A stretch of 64,000 bases of DNA from assembly GCA_965223005.1 (NCBI GenBank), contig CBDCVK010000010.1:512001-576000 (forward strand), in the 5' to 3' direction. The notes under the pieces were generated by a model. It saw only the letters and a list, made by a program, of their open reading frames with translations. It made no database searches and was not told the DNA's origin. Position numbers and translations under genes: made by a program. Source of the stretch: Terriglobia bacterium (GTDB taxonomy: Bacteria; Acidobacteriota; Terriglobia; JAJPHL01; JAPKYU01). Positions within the stretch are counted from its first letter, which is position 1, and every line of letters begins with the position of its first letter. Positions 6,116 through 12,843 of the stretch are shown in pieces.

Positions 6116-7483
6116 ATGCTGGCTAACCGGTTGTTGGTAGTTGGAGGACAAGCTGCAGGACTGAGTGCGGCCAGCCGGGCGCGCCGGCTGGACTCGCGGC
6201 TGCATATCACCGTCTTGGAACAAGGGCACCATATCTCCTACAGCGCCTGTGGCTTGGCCTATTTACTCAGCGGGCAGGTGCCGCGAGCCGAGGATCTGCT
6301 GGTGTACTCGGCCGAATTTTTTCGGGAGCAGCGCAACATCGAGGTGCTGGTTGGCATGCGGGTGGTTGAGATCGAGCCGGGACGGCGGAGGGTACGCGCC
6401 CTGGCCGTCGAGACCGGGCAAGAACACCTGTTCCCTTACGACCGGTTGGTTCTGGCCACGGGCACCCGGCCAGACTGGCCCGCCATCCCCGGCATGGATT
6501 CACCCGGCGTCTTCCAAGGGAACAACCTGGCAGGGACGCTGGCCTTACAGGCCTTCCTGGAAACCGGCCAGCGGCCTCGTCGGGCCGTCGTCCTGGGCGG
6601 TGGCTATATTGGGCTGGAGTACGCCGAGGCGTTGCGCCAGCGAGGTCTGCACGTTGTGGTGCTCCACTGCGGCAGCGAGCTATTGGAGGGATTCGATCCG
6701 GAAATCAACGAGCTGGTGGAACAGAGGCTACTGCAACACGGCGTGGAAGTGTTTAAGGGCACTCCGGCTACCGCGATCCTGGGGCAGGGGCGCGTGCAGC
6801 GGGTGCTCTCTGCCGCCGGGCGGCACGAGGCGGACCTGGCGTTAGTGGCCACCGGCGTTGTGCCACGCTCCGAGGTGGCCATAGCCGCCGGCCTATCCAC
6901 CGGGGTGAGGGGTGCAATCGTCGTGGATGAGCGGATGCAAACCAGCCTGCCCGGCGTCTATGCCGCCGGCGATTGTGCTCATACGATTCACCTGGTAACC
7001 GGGCGTCCTGTCTACATCCCGCTGGGCACGACCGCAAACAAACAGGGCCGCGTCGCGGGCGAGAATGCCGCCGGTGGCAACGCGCGCTTTGCAGGCATCG
7101 TAGGCACCACTGTCACCCGGGTGTTCGAATTGGAGTGCGGCCGCACTGGTTTGTCGGAATCCGAAGCGCGCGCCGGAGGCTTCCGCGTGGTCACCGCGGT
7201 CATCGAGCACGGGAGCCGCGCTCACTACTTTGGAGCCAAGCAGATGCGGGTGAAGCTGCTGGCCGACCGCGCCAATGGACGCCTCCTAGGGGGGCAGCTG
7301 CTGGGCGAGGAAGGGGTGGCCAAGCGGGTCGACGTGGTGGCCACGGCCCTGCATGCGCGTATGAATATTGAGCAACTGGCTGGCCTGGACTTGAGTTATG
7401 CGCCGCCTTTCGCCCCGGTTTGGGACCCGCTCCTGACTGCCGCAAATGCTCTGGGCCGGAAACTTCGTGACGGACGTGGCTGA
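6116..7483 (+). CDS. CoA-disulfide reductase / NADH oxidase-family flavoprotein
   Basis: GGQAAGLSAA FAD-binding motif, single redox Cys in ISYSACGL, GGGYIGLE NAD-binding motif, AAGDC, C-terminal LDLSYAPPF. Start taken as ATG 6116. Confidence 0.9.
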   Translation: MLANRLLVVGGQAAGLSAASRARRLDSRLHITVLEQGHHISYSACGLAYLLSGQVPRAEDLLVYSAEFFREQRNIEVLVGMRVVEIEPGRRRVRALAVETGQEHLFPYDRLVLATGTRPDWPAIPGMDSPGVFQGNNLAGTLALQAFLETGQRPRRAVVLGGGYIGLEYAEALRQRGLHVVVLHCGSELLEGFDPEINELVEQRLLQHGVEVFKGTPATAILGQGRVQRVLSAAGRHEADLALVATGVVPRSEVAIAAGLSTGVRGAIVVDERMQTSLPGVYAAGDCAHTIHLVTGRPVYIPLGTTANKQGRVAGENAAGGNARFAGIVGTTVTRVFELECGRTGLSESEARAGGFRVVTAVIEHGSRAHYFGAKQMRVKLLADRANGRLLGGQLLGEEGVAKRVDVVATALHARMNIEQLAGLDLSYAPPFAPVWDPLLTAANALGRKLRDGRG

Positions 7484-7588
7484 CAGTGGCCTGCGTGGCT
7501 GGCAGTGGCCAGCTAGGATAAGCGCCGGCGCAAGTTGACACTTCATGTTCGGCAGGTTATATCCACACTGATAGGGAGGAAGCGGCGT

Positions 7589-8104
7589 ATGAGTGCTTTG
7601 GAGGCAGAGTCGCGGGCGGCGGACTTTCTTCTGCCGGGCCTGGACAACAAGACATATTCGTTGGCGGAATCGTTGAAAGAGGGGCCGGTGCTGGCCGCTT
7701 TCTTCAAGTCAAGCTGTCCGGTCTGCCAACTCACCTTTCCATTCCTGGAACGGTTTCAGCACCATTTCCGCGAAACCAAGGCGCACATCTGGGCTGTCAG
7801 CCAGGATGAGCCGGAGGAGGCGCTAACGTTCGCCACCGAATACGGGCTCAGCATGCCGGTGCTCCTGGAGAATGTAGAACACAACTATCCGGTATCAAAT
7901 GCCTACGGCCTGACTCACGTCCCTACAGTCTTCCTGATCGGTCAGGCCGGTGACATCCTGCAGACCTCGGTCGGTTTCGTACGCAAAGAGCTGGTCCAGA
8001 TGGGCCGTAGGCTGGAGATGCTCACCGGCAGAAAGGGTTTCGTGCCTTTCGGGGAACAGGACGAGGTCCCGGAATGGCAGTCCGGTTGAAGCTCCAAGAA
8101 CTAG
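7589..8104 (+). CDS. Thioredoxin-fold redoxin (TlpA/AhpC-TSA family), predicted selenoprotein with C-terminal Sec (U167)
   Basis: RBS AGGGAGGA, ATG 7589, CPVC motif. TGA 8087-8089 is followed in frame by AGC TCC AAG AAC TAG (G-U-S-S-K-N). SECIS-like hairpin follows and tRNA-Sec is about 300 bp away. Confidence 0.8.
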
Positions 8105-8121
8105 CCCCCGTCGGGGGTTCT
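8090..8121 (+). promoter_or_regulatory. Putative bacterial SECIS element
   Basis: Stem CCCCC(8105-8109)/GGGGG(8113-8117) with a GUC loop starting 21 nt after the UGA. The stem can extend via AGAAC/GTTCT. Fits the bacterial SECIS consensus (loop starting GU, 16-37 nt from UGA). Confidence 0.7.
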
Positions 8122-8411
8122 AATCCCGGTCGACTTCCCGCAGCAGGTTTTTCTTGTGCTTGGGGGTCTTTCGTTTCCGCGTATCCGGAATGGGGCGGGA
8201 GGGAGGAGGCGTGCCCAGGCGCTCGCGCGCGATCGCCCGAACCTCTTTGCCAGAGCTGAACCGGCGGCGGCGCCTACCAGAACGAACCATCGGGTGATCC
8301 CAACCTGAACCAAGCGGTACGACAACTGTTTGCCCTTACCTGATCTTCGCGAGCCCTCGCCGAGGCTTACTCAATCGGCAATCAGCCTATCGGCAATGAC
8401 TCAATCAGAGA

Positions 8412-8506
8412 TGGCGGAAGGTTATGGGAATCGAACCCATCGCTGCTCGTGAGAAACAGCCACCGGCTTTGAAGGCCGGGCGAGTCACCAGACCCGATTA
8501 CCTTCC
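8412..8506 (-). tRNA. selC: tRNA-Sec (anticodon UCA)
   Basis: Reverse complement GGAAGGTAATCGGGTCTGGTGACTCGCCCGGCCTTCAAAGCCGGTGGCTGTTTCTCACGAGCAGCGATGGGTTCGATTCCCATAACCTTCCGCCA: 95 nt, UCA anticodon, extended acceptor stem, long variable arm, GCCA end. Confidence 0.97.
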
Positions 8507-8550
8507 AGGCCCAGTATAGCTCGATATTCGAAGGCGGCAGGCGGCGGCCG

Positions 8551-11025
8551 TCAACGGGAGGCAGTCCGTTCCAGAGCCCGCTCGGTGTACCGATACACCA
8601 GGTGGTTGGTGCATACTTCGTAGTAGCGTCGCTGGGTGTACTCCTTCAAGCTGAAGGAGTGGGCATCCACAAAGGGAATCTGCGCTTCGCGCACCACCAG
8701 CCGCTGGAACACCTCGTTGGGCAAGGGGAAGGCACCACAGTGCAGCGTCACCTTTTCCGGCTGCCAGAGCAAGGGCATTTCCAGCTCGACCGGCTGGAGC
8801 GAAATCTCCTCTTGCAGTTTGTCAAACGCCTCCTCGCTCAGGCAAATCCCGGTGTTGTAGCGGACCAGGAACTCTTCCATGGCGCCTGCGGCGGCCTCTT
8901 CGGTGATGGTCTGGAACACGAACGCCCGGAAGAGCGACTGCTTGCTGTCCAGCGCGCGGCGGGCCAGCTTGCTGCACCCGCTGAGCCGGTCGGCCAGGTT
9001 GATGGCCGAGGAGATCATGATCCGGGTCTCGCCGTCCAGCAGGTACATGGGCGTCGAGTTCTGCCAGCAGATTCCGATGCCAATCTCCAGCCGCGGCAAG
9101 TCCGCCTTCTCGGCCCTCGCATTGTATTGCTCGACCACGGCCATGATCTCCCGCGCCAAGCCACAGGCTCGGGCCACGGGATAACCGCCCAGCGCCGCAC
9201 CTTGTTTCTCGAACATTGCCAGAATCACCGCGTCGCCCTCAATGAACACCTTCTCACCGGCGTACTTGGGCAGCAGCTTGTTCAGCGGTTCGTAAAAGTT
9301 CAGACTGAAGTGGCTGGCCGGATTCAGGCCGCGGGCGAACAGGTCGGCGGTGAGCCGGGTGGAGTCACGCACGTCGGCTTTCAGAATCACGTGGCCTAGT
9401 ATCTGTTCGCCCTGCGGCTTGTCCTCCGCCGGCAGCAGGAACTCGTACAGGGTGTTGTTGATTCGGGAAAGCTGCCGGGTTTTTTCCTCAAACAGCAGGT
9501 TGACCCGCTCCATCAGGCCTTGCAGGGCCTGTAGCAGGCAATTGTCGCGGTGGTGCCGCAGGAAATCGCGAACGAAGCGAACGAGAAAGGCGCGGAGGTC
9601 ACGTGGTTGATAGGTACGCACTCGAGCGGCGGCCTCTTCCAGAGTGGCTACGCTGGCCCGGGTCAGCTTGTAATGCGTGATCAGGTCGGCCACCTTCTTG
9701 AGTTCGGAAGGGTCCAGGAGGGCGCGTTTCAGTTGCTGCGGATGGATCGGCGGGCAGTAGTCCTGGTAGACGTTCGCCGTCTCGTAGGCGGCGGCGAAGC
9801 AGGGCAATAGCCCCAACTGCTGCGCTGCGTTATAAAATTCATCAACTAGCTGGCGCTGGATCTCTAGCCTTTCCTTCAGGGCGCTCAGTTCTTTCCGCGG
9901 TGCCTTTCGCGACTGCGCCTCAGCCAGCAGTTGCTCGGTGCGCACAGTACCGAGCAGCTGCTCCACATTTTCGGGGACGTTGAGCATCTCCGTCAGGTGC
10001 GCGTCATAGGCTTCCGTCGACAGCCGCAGTTGTTCGGCCGACTGCCTCAGTTGTCTCTCCGGCTCCTCTAGGCGCCCCGCAAGATCGGGAGAGGCCGGAG
10101 ACGGGGTCTCGGGGCGGGGACCGAAGAGGCGTCCCAATCCCAATCCCAGCCCGCGCTCGGGAGGCTGGAGCTGGTCGCGCAAAGATGAGGTCCGGCTGGC
10201 CAATTGGTGATGCTCCTGCTGACGGGTCTCCAGCTCACGCGCCTCCGGTCCGACTGCGTCCACCCCCTTGAGCATGGACTTCAGCCAGCGCTCCACGGAT
10301 TCGTACAGGTCCGGGTCGCGGTGGAAGTTGCCCAACATGACGTACTTGGTTAGCTGAATGTAATCGTCACGGCCGGTTTCGGTGAACACCAGCGGGTGAG
10401 AAAAGTAAGTGAACCAGGGACTGGCTTCGTCGCCGAAAAAGGATTCGCGCGTCTTGCGGACCACACCAGCCTGCACTTCGTTAGCCAGCGACAGTAATTC
10501 ATTCGAAACGCGTCGGAAGACGTTCTTCTTGTCGGCCTGAAACTCGCTGAAGATTTCCTTCAGTTGGAAGGCGCGCAAGTTCCGATCGTGGCGCGGCCCT
10601 TCATACATCCGCAGCTTGTTCTTGCCCTCCATCTGGATGCGGCCGTACTGTTGCTGCACTTCCCAGCTCAGGTACTTGAAGAGGGCGACGTTTCCCAATA
10701 GGTCGATGTCGGGGTTGCGCGCCTCCTTGGCGTGGCTGAGCGCACTGAGCAGTACCTCCTGCAACAGACGCTTGAATTCGTTGCGCTCCTGCGGCTTGGG
10801 CGGGCCCGGGTTCTGCTCCGCCAGTTCAGGCGCGCGGCTGTGCTTCATAAAGAGCTTGAGAATGTAGCCCCCGGTGAAGCCGATGAAGCGGGAGCTCAGG
10901 TGGACGTCGTGGCGGACGTTGTCCACGCCCGGCACTAGCGATGGAAAGCGCAGGTCCGGTGCGGACCCGACGAGGTGAACCGCTGCATATACGCGTTCCG
11001 GGCTGGAACGGGAGAACAGCGGCAT
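8551..11025 (-). CDS. Large helical protein with C-terminal class III nucleotide cyclase-like domain
   Basis: Motifs VILKADVRDST, FIEGDAVIL, LEIGIGI, SSAINLADRLS match the class III cyclase catalytic layout. About 540 aa of helical/coiled-coil N-terminus is unassigned. Confidence 0.75.
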   Translation of the reverse strand: MPLFSRSSPERVYAAVHLVGSAPDLRFPSLVPGVDNVRHDVHLSSRFIGFTGGYILKLFMKHSRAPELAEQNPGPPKPQERNEFKRLLQEVLLSALSHAKEARNPDIDLLGNVALFKYLSWEVQQQYGRIQMEGKNKLRMYEGPRHDRNLRAFQLKEIFSEFQADKKNVFRRVSNELLSLANEVQAGVVRKTRESFFGDEASPWFTYFSHPLVFTETGRDDYIQLTKYVMLGNFHRDPDLYESVERWLKSMLKGVDAVGPEARELETRQQEHHQLASRTSSLRDQLQPPERGLGLGLGRLFGPRPETPSPASPDLAGRLEEPERQLRQSAEQLRLSTEAYDAHLTEMLNVPENVEQLLGTVRTEQLLAEAQSRKAPRKELSALKERLEIQRQLVDEFYNAAQQLGLLPCFAAAYETANVYQDYCPPIHPQQLKRALLDPSELKKVADLITHYKLTRASVATLEEAAARVRTYQPRDLRAFLVRFVRDFLRHHRDNCLLQALQGLMERVNLLFEEKTRQLSRINNTLYEFLLPAEDKPQGEQILGHVILKADVRDSTRLTADLFARGLNPASHFSLNFYEPLNKLLPKYAGEKVFIEGDAVILAMFEKQGAALGGYPVARACGLAREIMAVVEQYNARAEKADLPRLEIGIGICWQNSTPMYLLDGETRIMISSAINLADRLSGCSKLARRALDSKQSLFRAFVFQTITEEAAAGAMEEFLVRYNTGICLSEEAFDKLQEEISLQPVELEMPLLWQPEKVTLHCGAFPLPNEVFQRLVVREAQIPFVDAHSFSLKEYTQRRYYEVCTNHLVYRYTERALERTASR

Positions 11026-11449
11026 CGTTTCGGCAGTCTAGCAGAAAAATCGCGACCGAGAGCAACAGAACACTGAGGGCCAAGTTCAAGTTGGAACCGG
11101 GAAGCTATGGTTTAGCCAGAGCTTCCTTGTTGCCAGCTATCGTTGCCAGCCATCACACACAGTGAGTTGCACCAAGCCAAAGAGATGGGAAAAATATGGG
11201 CGCGCGGAAAAGTGATTTTCCGCCCGCAAGAGCCCGTGATGGGGACGTGATCGAAATTGCCAGGGTCAAACTGCCGTTCAGTTTAAGAAAGTAGAGTCGA
11301 ACGTGCACTCACTCGCCCACCAGCCACGTGAACTAGCTCCGCACACAGCATTCTGCTGATGGATTCCCGCCGCTGAAGGATCCTCGAAGGATCGTTGGGC
11401 CACCACTAAATGGCGGCCCTGTAATCGAAGCAGCTCTGCCCGGGGCCGG

Positions 11450-11632
11450 CTATGAGGCTCGAACCAGCAGCGGACGTGCGCGGATGGCTTCCCCCGCTGC
11501 CTCCAGAGCCGCAAGTTCGTTGTCCATCACCACAAGCCGCCGGGAAAAGCCGGCGCAACTCCAGCAAACGGCTCGCTTGATCTCATCCCGCGTCATCAGG
11601 AGTTCTCCGCAGGCGCATTGGTTAGGTTTCAT
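11450..11632 (-). CDS. Small Cys-rich hypothetical protein (CxC...CxxC)
   Basis: Strong RBS GGAGGTG just before ATG. 60 aa with CACG and CWSC. Confidence 0.6.
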   Translation of the reverse strand: MKPNQCACGELLMTRDEIKRAVCWSCAGFSRRLVVMDNELAALEAAGEAIRARPLLVRAS

Positions 11633-11781
11633 CTTTCACCTCCAACGCCTGCAAAGATATGCGCGCTCCACCCGACTGGCAATAGAACGCCCGTCTCATT
11701 TTGCGTGGGACGGCAGTACTGAGTCCGCCCACCCCGATGGTACTGCGTGTCCTAGCTGGCCCGAACCCCGCTGGCTCCCGC

Positions 11782-12327
11782 TCATCCCCCGGCAGACAGA
11801 CGACTGCAAACCGCATAGGCGCCGTTGGGGTCAATCGCGCTCCCGCCTTTCTCGATGTGGCGAATGATCCCCTGCTTATCCACCACGAAGGTGACCCGCA
11901 GAGCGAAGTTGCGCTCGGGATCCAGAATCCCGTATTTCTTGCTGACCTCGCGCATGAAGTCGCTCAGAAGCGGAAACTTCACCCCGAGGTCTTCGGCGTA
12001 ACGACGATTGGCGTAAGAGCTATCCACGCTGATGCCCAGCACCTGCGAGCCGGTCTTTTCGAATTTGGCGATATCATCCTGATACGCCTTCAGTTCCTTC
12101 GTTCAACCACCCGTGAATGCCAGGACGTAGAAGGCCAGTACCACATTCTTCTTCCCCTTGAAATCGCTCAACCGGACCGGCTTGTTGTTCTGATCCGGAA
12201 GCGTGAAATCGGGCGCGGAATCGCCTACTTTCAGATGGGTCATGACGTCGGGTGGCGGCTGAGCCGGGGCCAGACTGAGTGGCGCGGGCAGAATCAAAGC
12301 CAGTGCCAAAGCTGTTCGACAAACCAT
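11782..12327 (-). CDS. Exported peroxiredoxin (AhpE/BCP-like), predicted selenoprotein (U75)
   Basis: Track ORFs 12103..12504 and 11782..12042 are in the same frame and joined by TGA (12105-12103): FYVLAFTGG-U-TKELKAYQDDIAKFEKTGSQVLGISVDS. U sits at the peroxidatic TxxC position. RBS GGAGGT and a signal peptide follow from ATG 12327. Confidence 0.9.
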
Positions 12328-12534: not shown

Positions 12535-12561
12535 GCGCCTACACGAGAAAGGAGGTGGTCG

Positions 12562-12609
12562 ATGTTGCAGGATCCATTATGTAGGCCCCGTGAGGTGGTC
12601 GCGCCTTAG
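12562..12609 (+). CDS. 15-aa small ORF MLQDPLCRPREVVAP
   Basis: Lies after the promoter and an extended SD AGAAAGGAGGTG. Too short for the ORF track. Confidence 0.45.
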   Translation: MLQDPLCRPREVVAP

Positions 12610-12698
12610 GGCGGAATTTGCCTCAGAGCCGTCGTGTTTTCTTTCTGCTTGCCTGTGGCTGTAGAATTCCGCCTCAGGTACTCTTACGCGGCTACCGG

Positions 12699-12736
12699 CG
12701 CCGGGCAGGAGGGGTTGGCCCTTCGGCCCGGCGTTT
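12699..12736 (+). terminator. Intrinsic terminator-like hairpin
   Basis: CGCCGGGC(12699-12706)/GCCCGGCG(12726-12733) with inner GAGGG/CCCTT, followed by TTT. Confidence 0.55.
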
Positions 12737-12843
12737 CGCTTCTATCAGGGTGCTGAAAATTAGCGACTGGATCCGCTCAGAACCGTTTTCTGACGCCCGC
12801 AGTTCCTTAACTGTAACCACTTGTCAAGCCGCAACCCACTGAT

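Follow-up and report, generated by a model that had tools for sequence, protein, structure and literature searches.

A 64,000 nt stretch of contig CBDCVK010000010.1 (hereafter, the window), from an acidobacterial, Terriglobia-like genome of 3.24 Mb that is 96% complete, carries two genes that form a conserved cassette: one for a flavoprotein with only one redox-active Cys, and one for a small redoxin predicted to end in a selenocysteine (Sec) tail. The Sec-tailed redoxin appears to represent a selenoprotein family not found in current lists, and this family, with its conserved cassette, is the strongest and newest result of the analysis. It is considered probable that the flavoprotein, a relative of CoA-disulfide reductases (CoADR) and NADH oxidases (Nox), is the reductase of a relay running through C46, C43, and U167 of the redoxin. 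An earlier note on this DNA had pointed to four elements (tRNA-Sec, the single-Cys flavoprotein, the UGA-tailed redoxin, and a Sec-containing peroxiredoxin) and joined the three proteins in one electron relay. All four are present where it placed them, and its interpretation is supported in part: selA, selB, and selD are present and the gene pairing is conserved in the window's subfamily, but the peroxiredoxin end of the relay is not supported, and the flavoprotein is not an obligatory partner of the redoxin. Below, labels beginning with L denote genome loci, G sampled genomes, and P database proteins.

UGA Recoding in the Redoxin Gene

The redoxin gene of the window ends ...EWQSG-TGA-SSKN-TAG, with the TAG at 8102-8104, giving a predicted tail ...W-Q-S-G166-U167-S-S-K-N. 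Locus counts for the redoxin refer to the best 80 of at least 586 matching genome stretches, or 81 genes with the window included. In all 81, TGA comes directly behind the codon of an invariant Gly, and exactly four codons, with the consensus [GS]-S-[KR]-N, separate it from the true stop. The first of these encodes Gly in 50 genes, Ser in 29, and other residues in two; the second, Ser in 78 (TCG 44, TCC 24, TCA 7, TCT 3) and Ala in three; the third, Lys in 75 (AAG 40, AAA 35) and Arg in six; and the fourth, Asn in 80 (AAC 60, AAT 20) and Gly in one. Such synonymous variation amounts to conservation at the protein level. The true stop itself varies: TAG in 38 genes, TGA in 30, and TAA in 13. 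Cys occupies the position of the UGA in the stand-alone homologues P0423, P0468, and P0475, which end ...LGCASKN, ...PGCSSKN, and ...PGCGSKN, and in ten fused forms with ...KPG-C-x-SRH in this column.

A putative Sec insertion sequence (SECIS) hairpin follows. Alignment of 45 downstream sequences with MAFFT and RNAalifold gave no consensus structure; differences in loop length misaligned the stems, and a loop-anchored scan (stem of at least 5 bp, 80 distinct sequences, 200 shuffles as control) was therefore used. A stem begins 14-20 nt past the UGA in 79 of the 80 sequences, as against a mean of 8.8 and a maximum of 15 in the shuffles, and 50 have GGUC as their loop. The stem arms take 34 distinct forms, with C-G, G-C, and U-A exchanges at each stem level, a pattern of covariation. 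In each of the 19 flavoprotein-linked redoxin genes checked, KPG-TGA is followed by a short tail and a stop, with a hairpin 15-20 nt past the UGA whose stem sequences are new and again covary. This evidence is comparative, since single-sequence folding energies behind the redoxin and peroxiredoxin UGAs are not unusual (z-scores 0.20 and -0.03). No Rfam SECIS family was matched in the window, where Rfam matches other than that to tRNA-Sec were sub-threshold only (Ms_IGR-5, HOTTIP_3).

Could the redoxin TGA be a plain stop, and the hairpin a terminator, in the window perhaps of an antisense selC transcript? A consensus scan does call the window hairpin terminator-like on the minus strand (8117-8105). 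There is, however, no U-run after it on the plus strand, and the hairpin is kept in loci without selC, which was found in only 3 of 60 loci scanned. Nor would a plain stop explain why the first stop is TGA in every gene while the next varies among three codons, why the four intervening codons are conserved as protein with synonymous changes, or why the Cys homologues read through the same column. At the comparative level this explanation is already refuted, and it is scarcely credible otherwise. By all comparative criteria tested, the UGA is recoded and the redoxin is a true selenoprotein. A small SECIS with a GGUC loop, straddling the real stop four codons later, would direct the decoding of the UGA as Sec167, and the mature protein would end ...G-U-[GS]-S-K-N. 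Very small (5-9 bp) and lying across the true stop, the putative SECIS would be a compact natural recoding signal, and could serve in the engineering of C-terminal Sec tags.

One variant of this arrangement was seen at L113 (G269:C2), where the stop after the four-codon tail is missing and the frame runs through the hairpin (U-AAKNKAPGGSPVASE-stop), so that the SECIS would there lie inside the coding sequence.

The Redoxin Family

The redoxin matches the Pfam families AhpC-TSA and Redoxin (the latter at 52 bits; cut-off 26.6) and has the motif C43-P-V-C46. No specific model in NCBIfam (release 20) matches it; the highest-scoring model, that of ResA, reaches only 61.7 bits (cut-off 170). Homologues are numerous: 2010 clusters (at 90% identity) among 2036 candidates have E<=0.001, and a profile search of 1.84 billion representatives returned 330 proteins at E<=1e-30. 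Many of the latter (e.g., P0365-P0368 and P0001) match the profile from 1 to 165 and stop, a truncation signature. Twenty-six of 27 aligned database homologues end at the same invariant Gly; the exception, P0005, was called as a protein of 296 aa and departs from the frame. Among 401 genomes sampled from the phylum, 52 have a redoxin match at E<=1e-15, and in 37 of these (G152, flagged as unpublished, among them) the match has one TGA inside. Standard annotation does hide this protein: database proteins end before the UGA, and members are named at NCBI as "TlpA disulfide reductase family protein," with 165 aa. A common acidobacterial gene is systematically mis-annotated as a 161-166-aa "TlpA family" protein, and its recognition would enlarge the known selenoproteome of soil Acidobacteriota.

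For comparison with known selenoproteins, the whole of Table 1 of a 2026 review (PMC13188914), listing 119 families, was used. None of those listed is a TlpA-type redoxin with an intact CxxC and a C-terminal Sec. The table does include several UxxC redoxins and several C-terminal "-star" families (UXX-star 1 and 2, KCU-star, and GUXX-star among them), which resemble the redoxin in having Sec a few residues before the true stop; in both cases the gene would therefore be called truncated, with the SECIS at or beyond the stop. As listed there, however, the "-star" families are other protein families, none of them TlpA-type with an intact CxxC, and NCBIfam has no match to the redoxin among them. 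In the portions of the literature searched, PMC9312934 and PMC12013277 included, neither a TlpA-type redoxin with C-terminal Sec nor this gene pair is described. Nearly all thioredoxin-fold selenoproteins hold Sec inside a CxxC-type motif; the present one keeps its CxxC intact and adds the predicted Sec on a C-terminal arm.

Across a 39-sequence alignment, C43, P44, C46, P51, S71, Q72, P112, G166, and U/C167 are invariant. An AlphaFold2 (AF2) model from this alignment has a mean predicted local distance difference test score (pLDDT) of 95.5 and a predicted template modeling score (pTM) of 0.91; the last tail blocks score 96 and 88, and the tail is ordered in the model. The body matches ResA (Foldseek E 1e-12, TM 0.87). 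By DSSP, residues 163-164 and 167-168 form short beta bridges, and so do residues 110-111, which immediately precede cis-Pro112. Since the substrate strand of thioredoxin-fold enzymes pairs with the residues preceding their cis-Pro, the tail would lie in the redoxin's own groove, with U167 beside C43.

ResA, TlpA, and DsbE (PDB 2h19, 1su9, 3gl3) share with the redoxin the thioredoxin fold, the CxxC, the cis-Pro, and the Redoxin/AhpC-TSA Pfam match. It differs from them in falling below the ResA cut-off, in having an extra 35-residue C-terminal extension that ends in the predicted Sec, and in lacking their extracytoplasmic location: the N-terminus (MSALEAESRAADF...; maximum 12-residue hydropathy 0.32) shows neither signal peptide nor membrane anchor. 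The flavoprotein has no signal peptide either, and by sequence both proteins are cytoplasmic in character. No ccm or res genes, which would suggest a role in cytochrome maturation, are conserved in the neighborhoods of the 80 redoxin loci or of 20 loci with the gene pair.

The fused Cys forms belong to a family of their own, with more than 7000 clusters at E<=1e-10. These are proteins of ~530 aa (L096-L105, e.g., L100:1286-2986 on the minus strand, and P0241), annotated only as "TlpA family" or "peroxiredoxin," in which a Cys-form redoxin (CPTC ... KPG-C-x-SRH) is joined to a ~370-aa domain; they are 65-89% identical over the C-terminal part. The added domain has many invariant Cys, His, Asp, and Glu residues (e.g., C264, C280-D-E-R-F-N, C362, C437-P-E-H). 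It has no Pfam or NCBIfam match, and a search with it as query did not find it in the window's genome. Atlas searches gave unnamed clusters and, at rank 26, a weak lead to UGSC (16% of members); the window's genome gave no match to PF24696 or NF041046, in a search where the NF041046 control matched nowhere either. The AF2 model of a 545-aa fusion is poor in this domain (mean pLDDT 63.5).

The Flavoprotein

The upstream gene of the cassette encodes a protein matching Pyr_redox_2 (E 2.1e-62) and Pyr_redox_dim in Pfam. Its motif SYSAC45GLAY contains the sole Cys of the active site, which does not vary in alignments of 25 and of 30 relatives. A CxxxxC pair is absent, and the protein ends ...RKLRDGRG, without Sec. 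In the Protein Data Bank it aligns over its whole length with an NADH oxidase (6ruz, 355 bits), CoADR (3kd9 and 4fx9), NoxA-3 (6pfz), and a CoA-persulfide reductase (8a56); the rhodanese-fused structures 3icr and 3nta are also among the nearest. E ranges from 7e-105 to 4e-79 for 6ruz, 3kd9, 4fx9, 8a56, and 3icr. With these enzymes it shares the single redox Cys in S-x-x-x-C-G and the FAD, NAD, and dimerization domains. It is unlike some of them in having no fused rhodanese domain, and unlike any described in the portions of literature searched in being conserved beside a Sec-tailed redoxin.

Sec forms of this flavoprotein family, with the motif UGxP, are among the entries of PMC13188914. The flavoprotein of the window is the Cys form. 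Two homologues in the phylum sample (G047:C43 and G303:C3) have an in-frame TGA and may be Sec forms.

Conservation of the Gene Pair

Seen from the flavoprotein (best 80 of at least 515 matching genome stretches), the pair is well conserved among close relatives: where the flavoprotein is at least 52% identical to that of the window, a Sec-tailed redoxin lies directly downstream in 17 of 19 loci. At 51% identity or less the count is 0 of 61, and in eight of these the sequence extends less than 600 nt downstream. G000, G229, and G269 of the phylum sample have the two genes adjacent. The flavoprotein and redoxin are the only genes common to all 20 pair loci, the flanking genes varying, and the redoxins of the pairs have diverged to 36-66% identity. 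Comparative data of this kind show a conserved two-gene cassette.

In an IQ-TREE phylogeny of 93 rows that takes the fused Cys forms (support 100/99) as its root, 60 rows, of 83 Sec-tailed redoxins, make up a crown clade lacking the flavoprotein; the other deep lineages contain the pair. In a FastTree phylogeny of 115 rows, 21 pair-linked redoxins are spread over every deep lineage. Several deep nodes are weakly supported in this tree, which includes a 10-row clade made up entirely of pairs (support 0.997); L112 is the sister of the crown clade, and Cys-tailed forms are basal or nested. Most simply, the Sec-tailed family would have started out with the cassette, and the crown clade would have abandoned it.

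Several results weigh against a flavoprotein that serves the redoxin. Seen from the redoxin, the flavoprotein is upstream in only 4 of the best 80 loci (L016, L017, L063, L064), a set of loci dominated by the one crown clade. Redoxins of that clade adjoin a MutY-like gene instead, and a number of sampled genomes, including G014, G048, G075, G158, G179, G189, and G279, have the redoxin with no flavoprotein match at E<=1e-70; given both, the flavoprotein is not an obligatory partner. Even among close flavoprotein loci, L157 (56%) and L146 (52%, a Bacillota record) have no redoxin within 3 kb. The gaps within pairs are about 80-340 nt (576 nt in L164), so that translational coupling is unlikely, and co-transcription is unproven. 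The flavoprotein also misses the equivalog cut-offs for CoADR (388 against 578.8 for TIGR03385; 359.1 against 458 for NF007123), and is for this reason labeled CoADR/Nox-like here, not CoADR. Finally, the one source for placing U167 near C43 is the DSSP pattern. The expectation that the pairing would be conserved across Acidobacteriota is therefore borne out for close relatives of the flavoprotein, but not for the redoxin at large.

These results could mean that the pair reflects co-regulation or inherited synteny only, with the flavoprotein an ordinary enzyme of small-molecule substrates (CoADR, NADH oxidase, or NAD(P)H sulfur reductase) and the redoxin reduced by the general thioredoxin system. 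Redoxins living without the flavoprotein, in the crown clade and in the genomes named above, fit such an explanation, as do the intergenic gaps and the activity of the closest solved flavoprotein relatives on O2 or CoA disulfide. It accounts less well for 17 of the 19 closest flavoproteins keeping the redoxin directly downstream while the flanks change, for the persistence of the pair as its redoxins diverged to the extent given above, or for its presence in every deep lineage. On balance it is unlikely, though it is the alternative to be taken most seriously, and a functional pair is preferred.

The wider neighborhood of the redoxin is also partly conserved. In the 80 loci, an RlpA-like gene is present in 70, a MutY-like gene directly upstream in 54, an M28 peptidase in 42, a HIT protein in 40, and a homologue of the window's 824-aa gene in 27. 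In the Terriglobales crown clade (L019-L095, e.g., L088:2302-3942), the redoxin is directly behind the MutY-like glycosylase (HhH-GPD and NUDIX_4), with the RlpA-like gene further upstream. This order recalls the E. coli arrangement mutY-yggX-mltC, in which an oxidative-stress protein follows mutY.

RNA-library contigs (four runs of one study, from a strain 90-99% similar) extend over 8079-8266, selC, and portions of the flavoprotein gene. They leave the body of the redoxin gene uncovered and 7484-7588 unbridged, and have no bearing on expression or co-transcription. A scan for promoters and terminators found nothing decisive.

A Possible Two-Protein Relay

If the genes of the cassette do work together, the first would supply a cytoplasmic flavoprotein of the CoADR/Nox family with C45 as its single redox-active residue, and the second a cytoplasmic CxxC redoxin of TlpA/ResA fold with a Sec167 tail. 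The tail would be an ordered arm close to C43, within the substrate groove of the redoxin itself, making a three-center relay of C46, C43, and U167: U167 would form a selenenylsulfide with C43, which C46 would resolve. In this lineage, the flavoprotein would be the NAD(P)H-dependent reductase of the relay. A short-lived S-Se bond between C45 and U167, comparable to the Cys-S-S-CoA of CoADR, may form and be resolved by FADH2. Candidates for the final substrate are a peroxide, a protein disulfide, or a sulfoxide.

Mammalian high-Mr thioredoxin reductase (TrxR) has a C-terminal Gly-Cys-Sec-Gly arm. As there, Sec in the cassette would be near a C-terminus, on an arm proposed to shuttle between the thiol center of a flavoprotein and a CxxC, with a pyridine-nucleotide disulfide oxidoreductase as the electron source. 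The arm is here on the redoxin, however, not on the flavoprotein, and the functions are on separate polypeptides; there is no Cys beside the Sec (G-U-G/S, not C-U); and the flavoprotein has one Cys in place of the CVNVGC dithiol. With neither a C-terminal Sec nor a CxxxxC, the flavoprotein is not itself of the high-Mr TrxR type, and since Sec is on a separate redoxin, the resemblance could be functional only. A split TrxR-like relay of flavoprotein and redoxin is plausible as a hypothesis.

A more specific form of the preferred reading is offered tentatively. The cassette might be a bacterial, two-polypeptide counterpart of the TrxR Sec arm, with the Sec tail as a protein-tethered substitute for CoA: the tail would reach into the substrate channel of the flavoprotein, C45-S-Se-U167 would be resolved by FADH2, and the arm would swing back to the groove of the redoxin to reduce the C43-C46 disulfide. 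The result would be a self-contained reductase of disulfides or peroxides, NAD(P)H-driven and Se-dependent, to which the whole Sec-tailed family would trace back.

The family of the flavoprotein suggests another possibility: that the Sec/Cys tail carries sulfane sulfur or selenium, like the fused rhodanese of CoADR-RHD and Npsr, and that the cassette is a persulfide or polysulfide reductase. Many flavoprotein homologues are forms of 550-1000 aa, the nearest structures include CoA-persulfide reductase and the two rhodanese-fused proteins, and among the names that JGI gives to relatives is "CoA-dependent NAD(P)H sulfur oxidoreductase." The redoxin, with its thioredoxin fold and a CxxC that is intact and invariant, nonetheless points to dithiol/disulfide chemistry, and no sulfur-metabolism genes are conserved around the 20 pair loci. 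A sulfur-carrying tail thus appears improbable.

The layout that sets mammalian TrxR apart, a C-terminal Sec arm, has arisen independently here, and on the opposite partner. The cassette offers a concrete two-protein system in which to ask why Sec, and not Cys, is used on a mobile arm, with natural Cys-tailed and fused relatives available as controls.

A Probably Exported Peroxiredoxin

The peroxiredoxin gene reads ...FYVLAFTGG-TGA-TKE..., and its product matches AhpC-TSA (E 5.6e-40). In 201 genomes sampled from the phylum, the 25 best matches (42-63% identical; that of the window and that of G049, flagged as unpublished, included) all have one in-frame TGA, and Cys forms rank below them. At 5 of 6 loci the TGA follows FYVLAFTGG, with conserved coding sequence beyond and a hairpin 17 nt downstream; the sixth, L109, was missed by the search pattern. 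A compensatory change in the stem (GGCG/CGCC to GGCC/GGCC) was found among 4 orthologues. The proposed UGA at the peroxidatic site is thus well supported, and by these comparisons the conservation of both UGAs, in the redoxin and the peroxiredoxin, is far beyond chance.

A "Peroxiredoxin (Prx), TxxU" family is entered in Table 1 of PMC13188914. From its sequence, the window protein is a selenoprotein of this known kind, separate from the flavoprotein/redoxin unit. Like PrxU of Eubacterium acidaminophilum, it is an AhpC-TSA protein with its predicted Sec in T-G-G-U and a putative SECIS 17 nt downstream; unlike PrxU, it is BCP-like, scores far below the PrxU equivalog (76 against 270 bits), has a predicted signal peptide, and has Val in place of the Pro of PxxxTxxU. 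An N-terminal, hydrophobic, signal-like segment ending in A-x-A/AFAQ is present in the protein and in 4 orthologues, so that it is most likely exported.

The earlier note had made this peroxiredoxin the end of a relay from NAD(P)H through the flavoprotein, the Sec tail, and the CxxC. All of the genes do lie within ~6 kb of each other and of selC. The peroxiredoxin gene is, however, on the opposite strand, 3.7 kb away, with two genes, selC and that of the 824-aa protein, in between; its product and the 4 orthologues have the signal-like segment that redoxin and flavoprotein lack; and none of the 80 loci has an orthologue in the 4 kb around the redoxin, separate matches there being only paralogues, 31-34% identical (L029, L051, L060). 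Because of compartment, strand, and unconserved linkage it is an unlikely acceptor, and the full relay, already disfavored, is very improbable.

The sub-threshold Rfam match to Ms_IGR-5, an actinobacterial small RNA, is intergenic, lies upstream of the gene for the peroxiredoxin, and scores 31.9 bits (E 2e-4; gathering score 45).

Selenocysteine Machinery and Other Elements of the Region

The tRNA-Sec has the anticodon tca (ARAGORN) and matches RF01852 with 78.5 bits (gathering score 47). The selA, selB, and selD genes that a functioning Sec pathway had been expected to include are all in the same genome, above their curated cut-offs (551, 341, and 357 bits). The selD gene (G000:C10:916629-917552, outside the window) has one in-frame TGA, and is hence itself a selenoprotein gene.

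Table 1. Elements of the region (window coordinates), with the evidence for each.
Element	Position	Strand	Basis
CoADR/NADH-oxidase-type FAD flavoprotein, 455 aa, Cys form	6116-7483	+	Pfam, NCBIfam, and PDB matches; C45 invariant
Sec-tailed TlpA/ResA-like redoxin, 171 aa (predicted)	7589-8104	+	Pfam; conserved UGA; alignment; AF2/Foldseek
Redoxin UGA, predicted Sec U167	8087-8089	+	TGA in 81 of 81 genes; Cys homologues align there
Redoxin SECIS-type hairpin, AGCCCCC-GUC-GGGGGUU	8103-8119	+	Fold; comparative scan; overlaps TAG stop and reaches 3' untranslated region
tRNA-Sec (selC)	8412-8506	-	ARAGORN; Rfam RF01852
824-aa protein without Pfam or NCBIfam match	8551-11025	-	
Peroxiredoxin selenoprotein, TxxU type, most likely exported	11782-12327	-	AhpC-TSA match; conserved TGA; hairpin; signal-like segment
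Peroxiredoxin UGA, predicted Sec at peroxidatic position (FTGG-U)	12103-12105	-	Conserved in orthologues
Peroxiredoxin SECIS-type hairpin (GGCGUAUCA-GGA-UGAUAUCGCC), from 17 nt past UGA	12067-12088	-	Fold; 4 orthologues
Sub-threshold Ms_IGR-5 match	12541-12743	+	Rfam

The three loci with tRNA-Sec near the redoxin, of the 60 scanned, are L016, L018, and L059; on this count selC was rejected as a member of an island, and it adjoins the cassette in close relatives only.

The 824-aa protein falls in the Atlas with unnamed clusters of ~740-820 aa; a Guanylate_cyc (PF00211) cluster at rank 20 (score 0.91, only 154 shared features) is a lead only. Homologues of its gene lie within 4 kb of a Sec-tailed redoxin in 24 of the 80 loci by tblastn, or 27 by clustering, and in L016 and L018 the homologue comes directly after selC.

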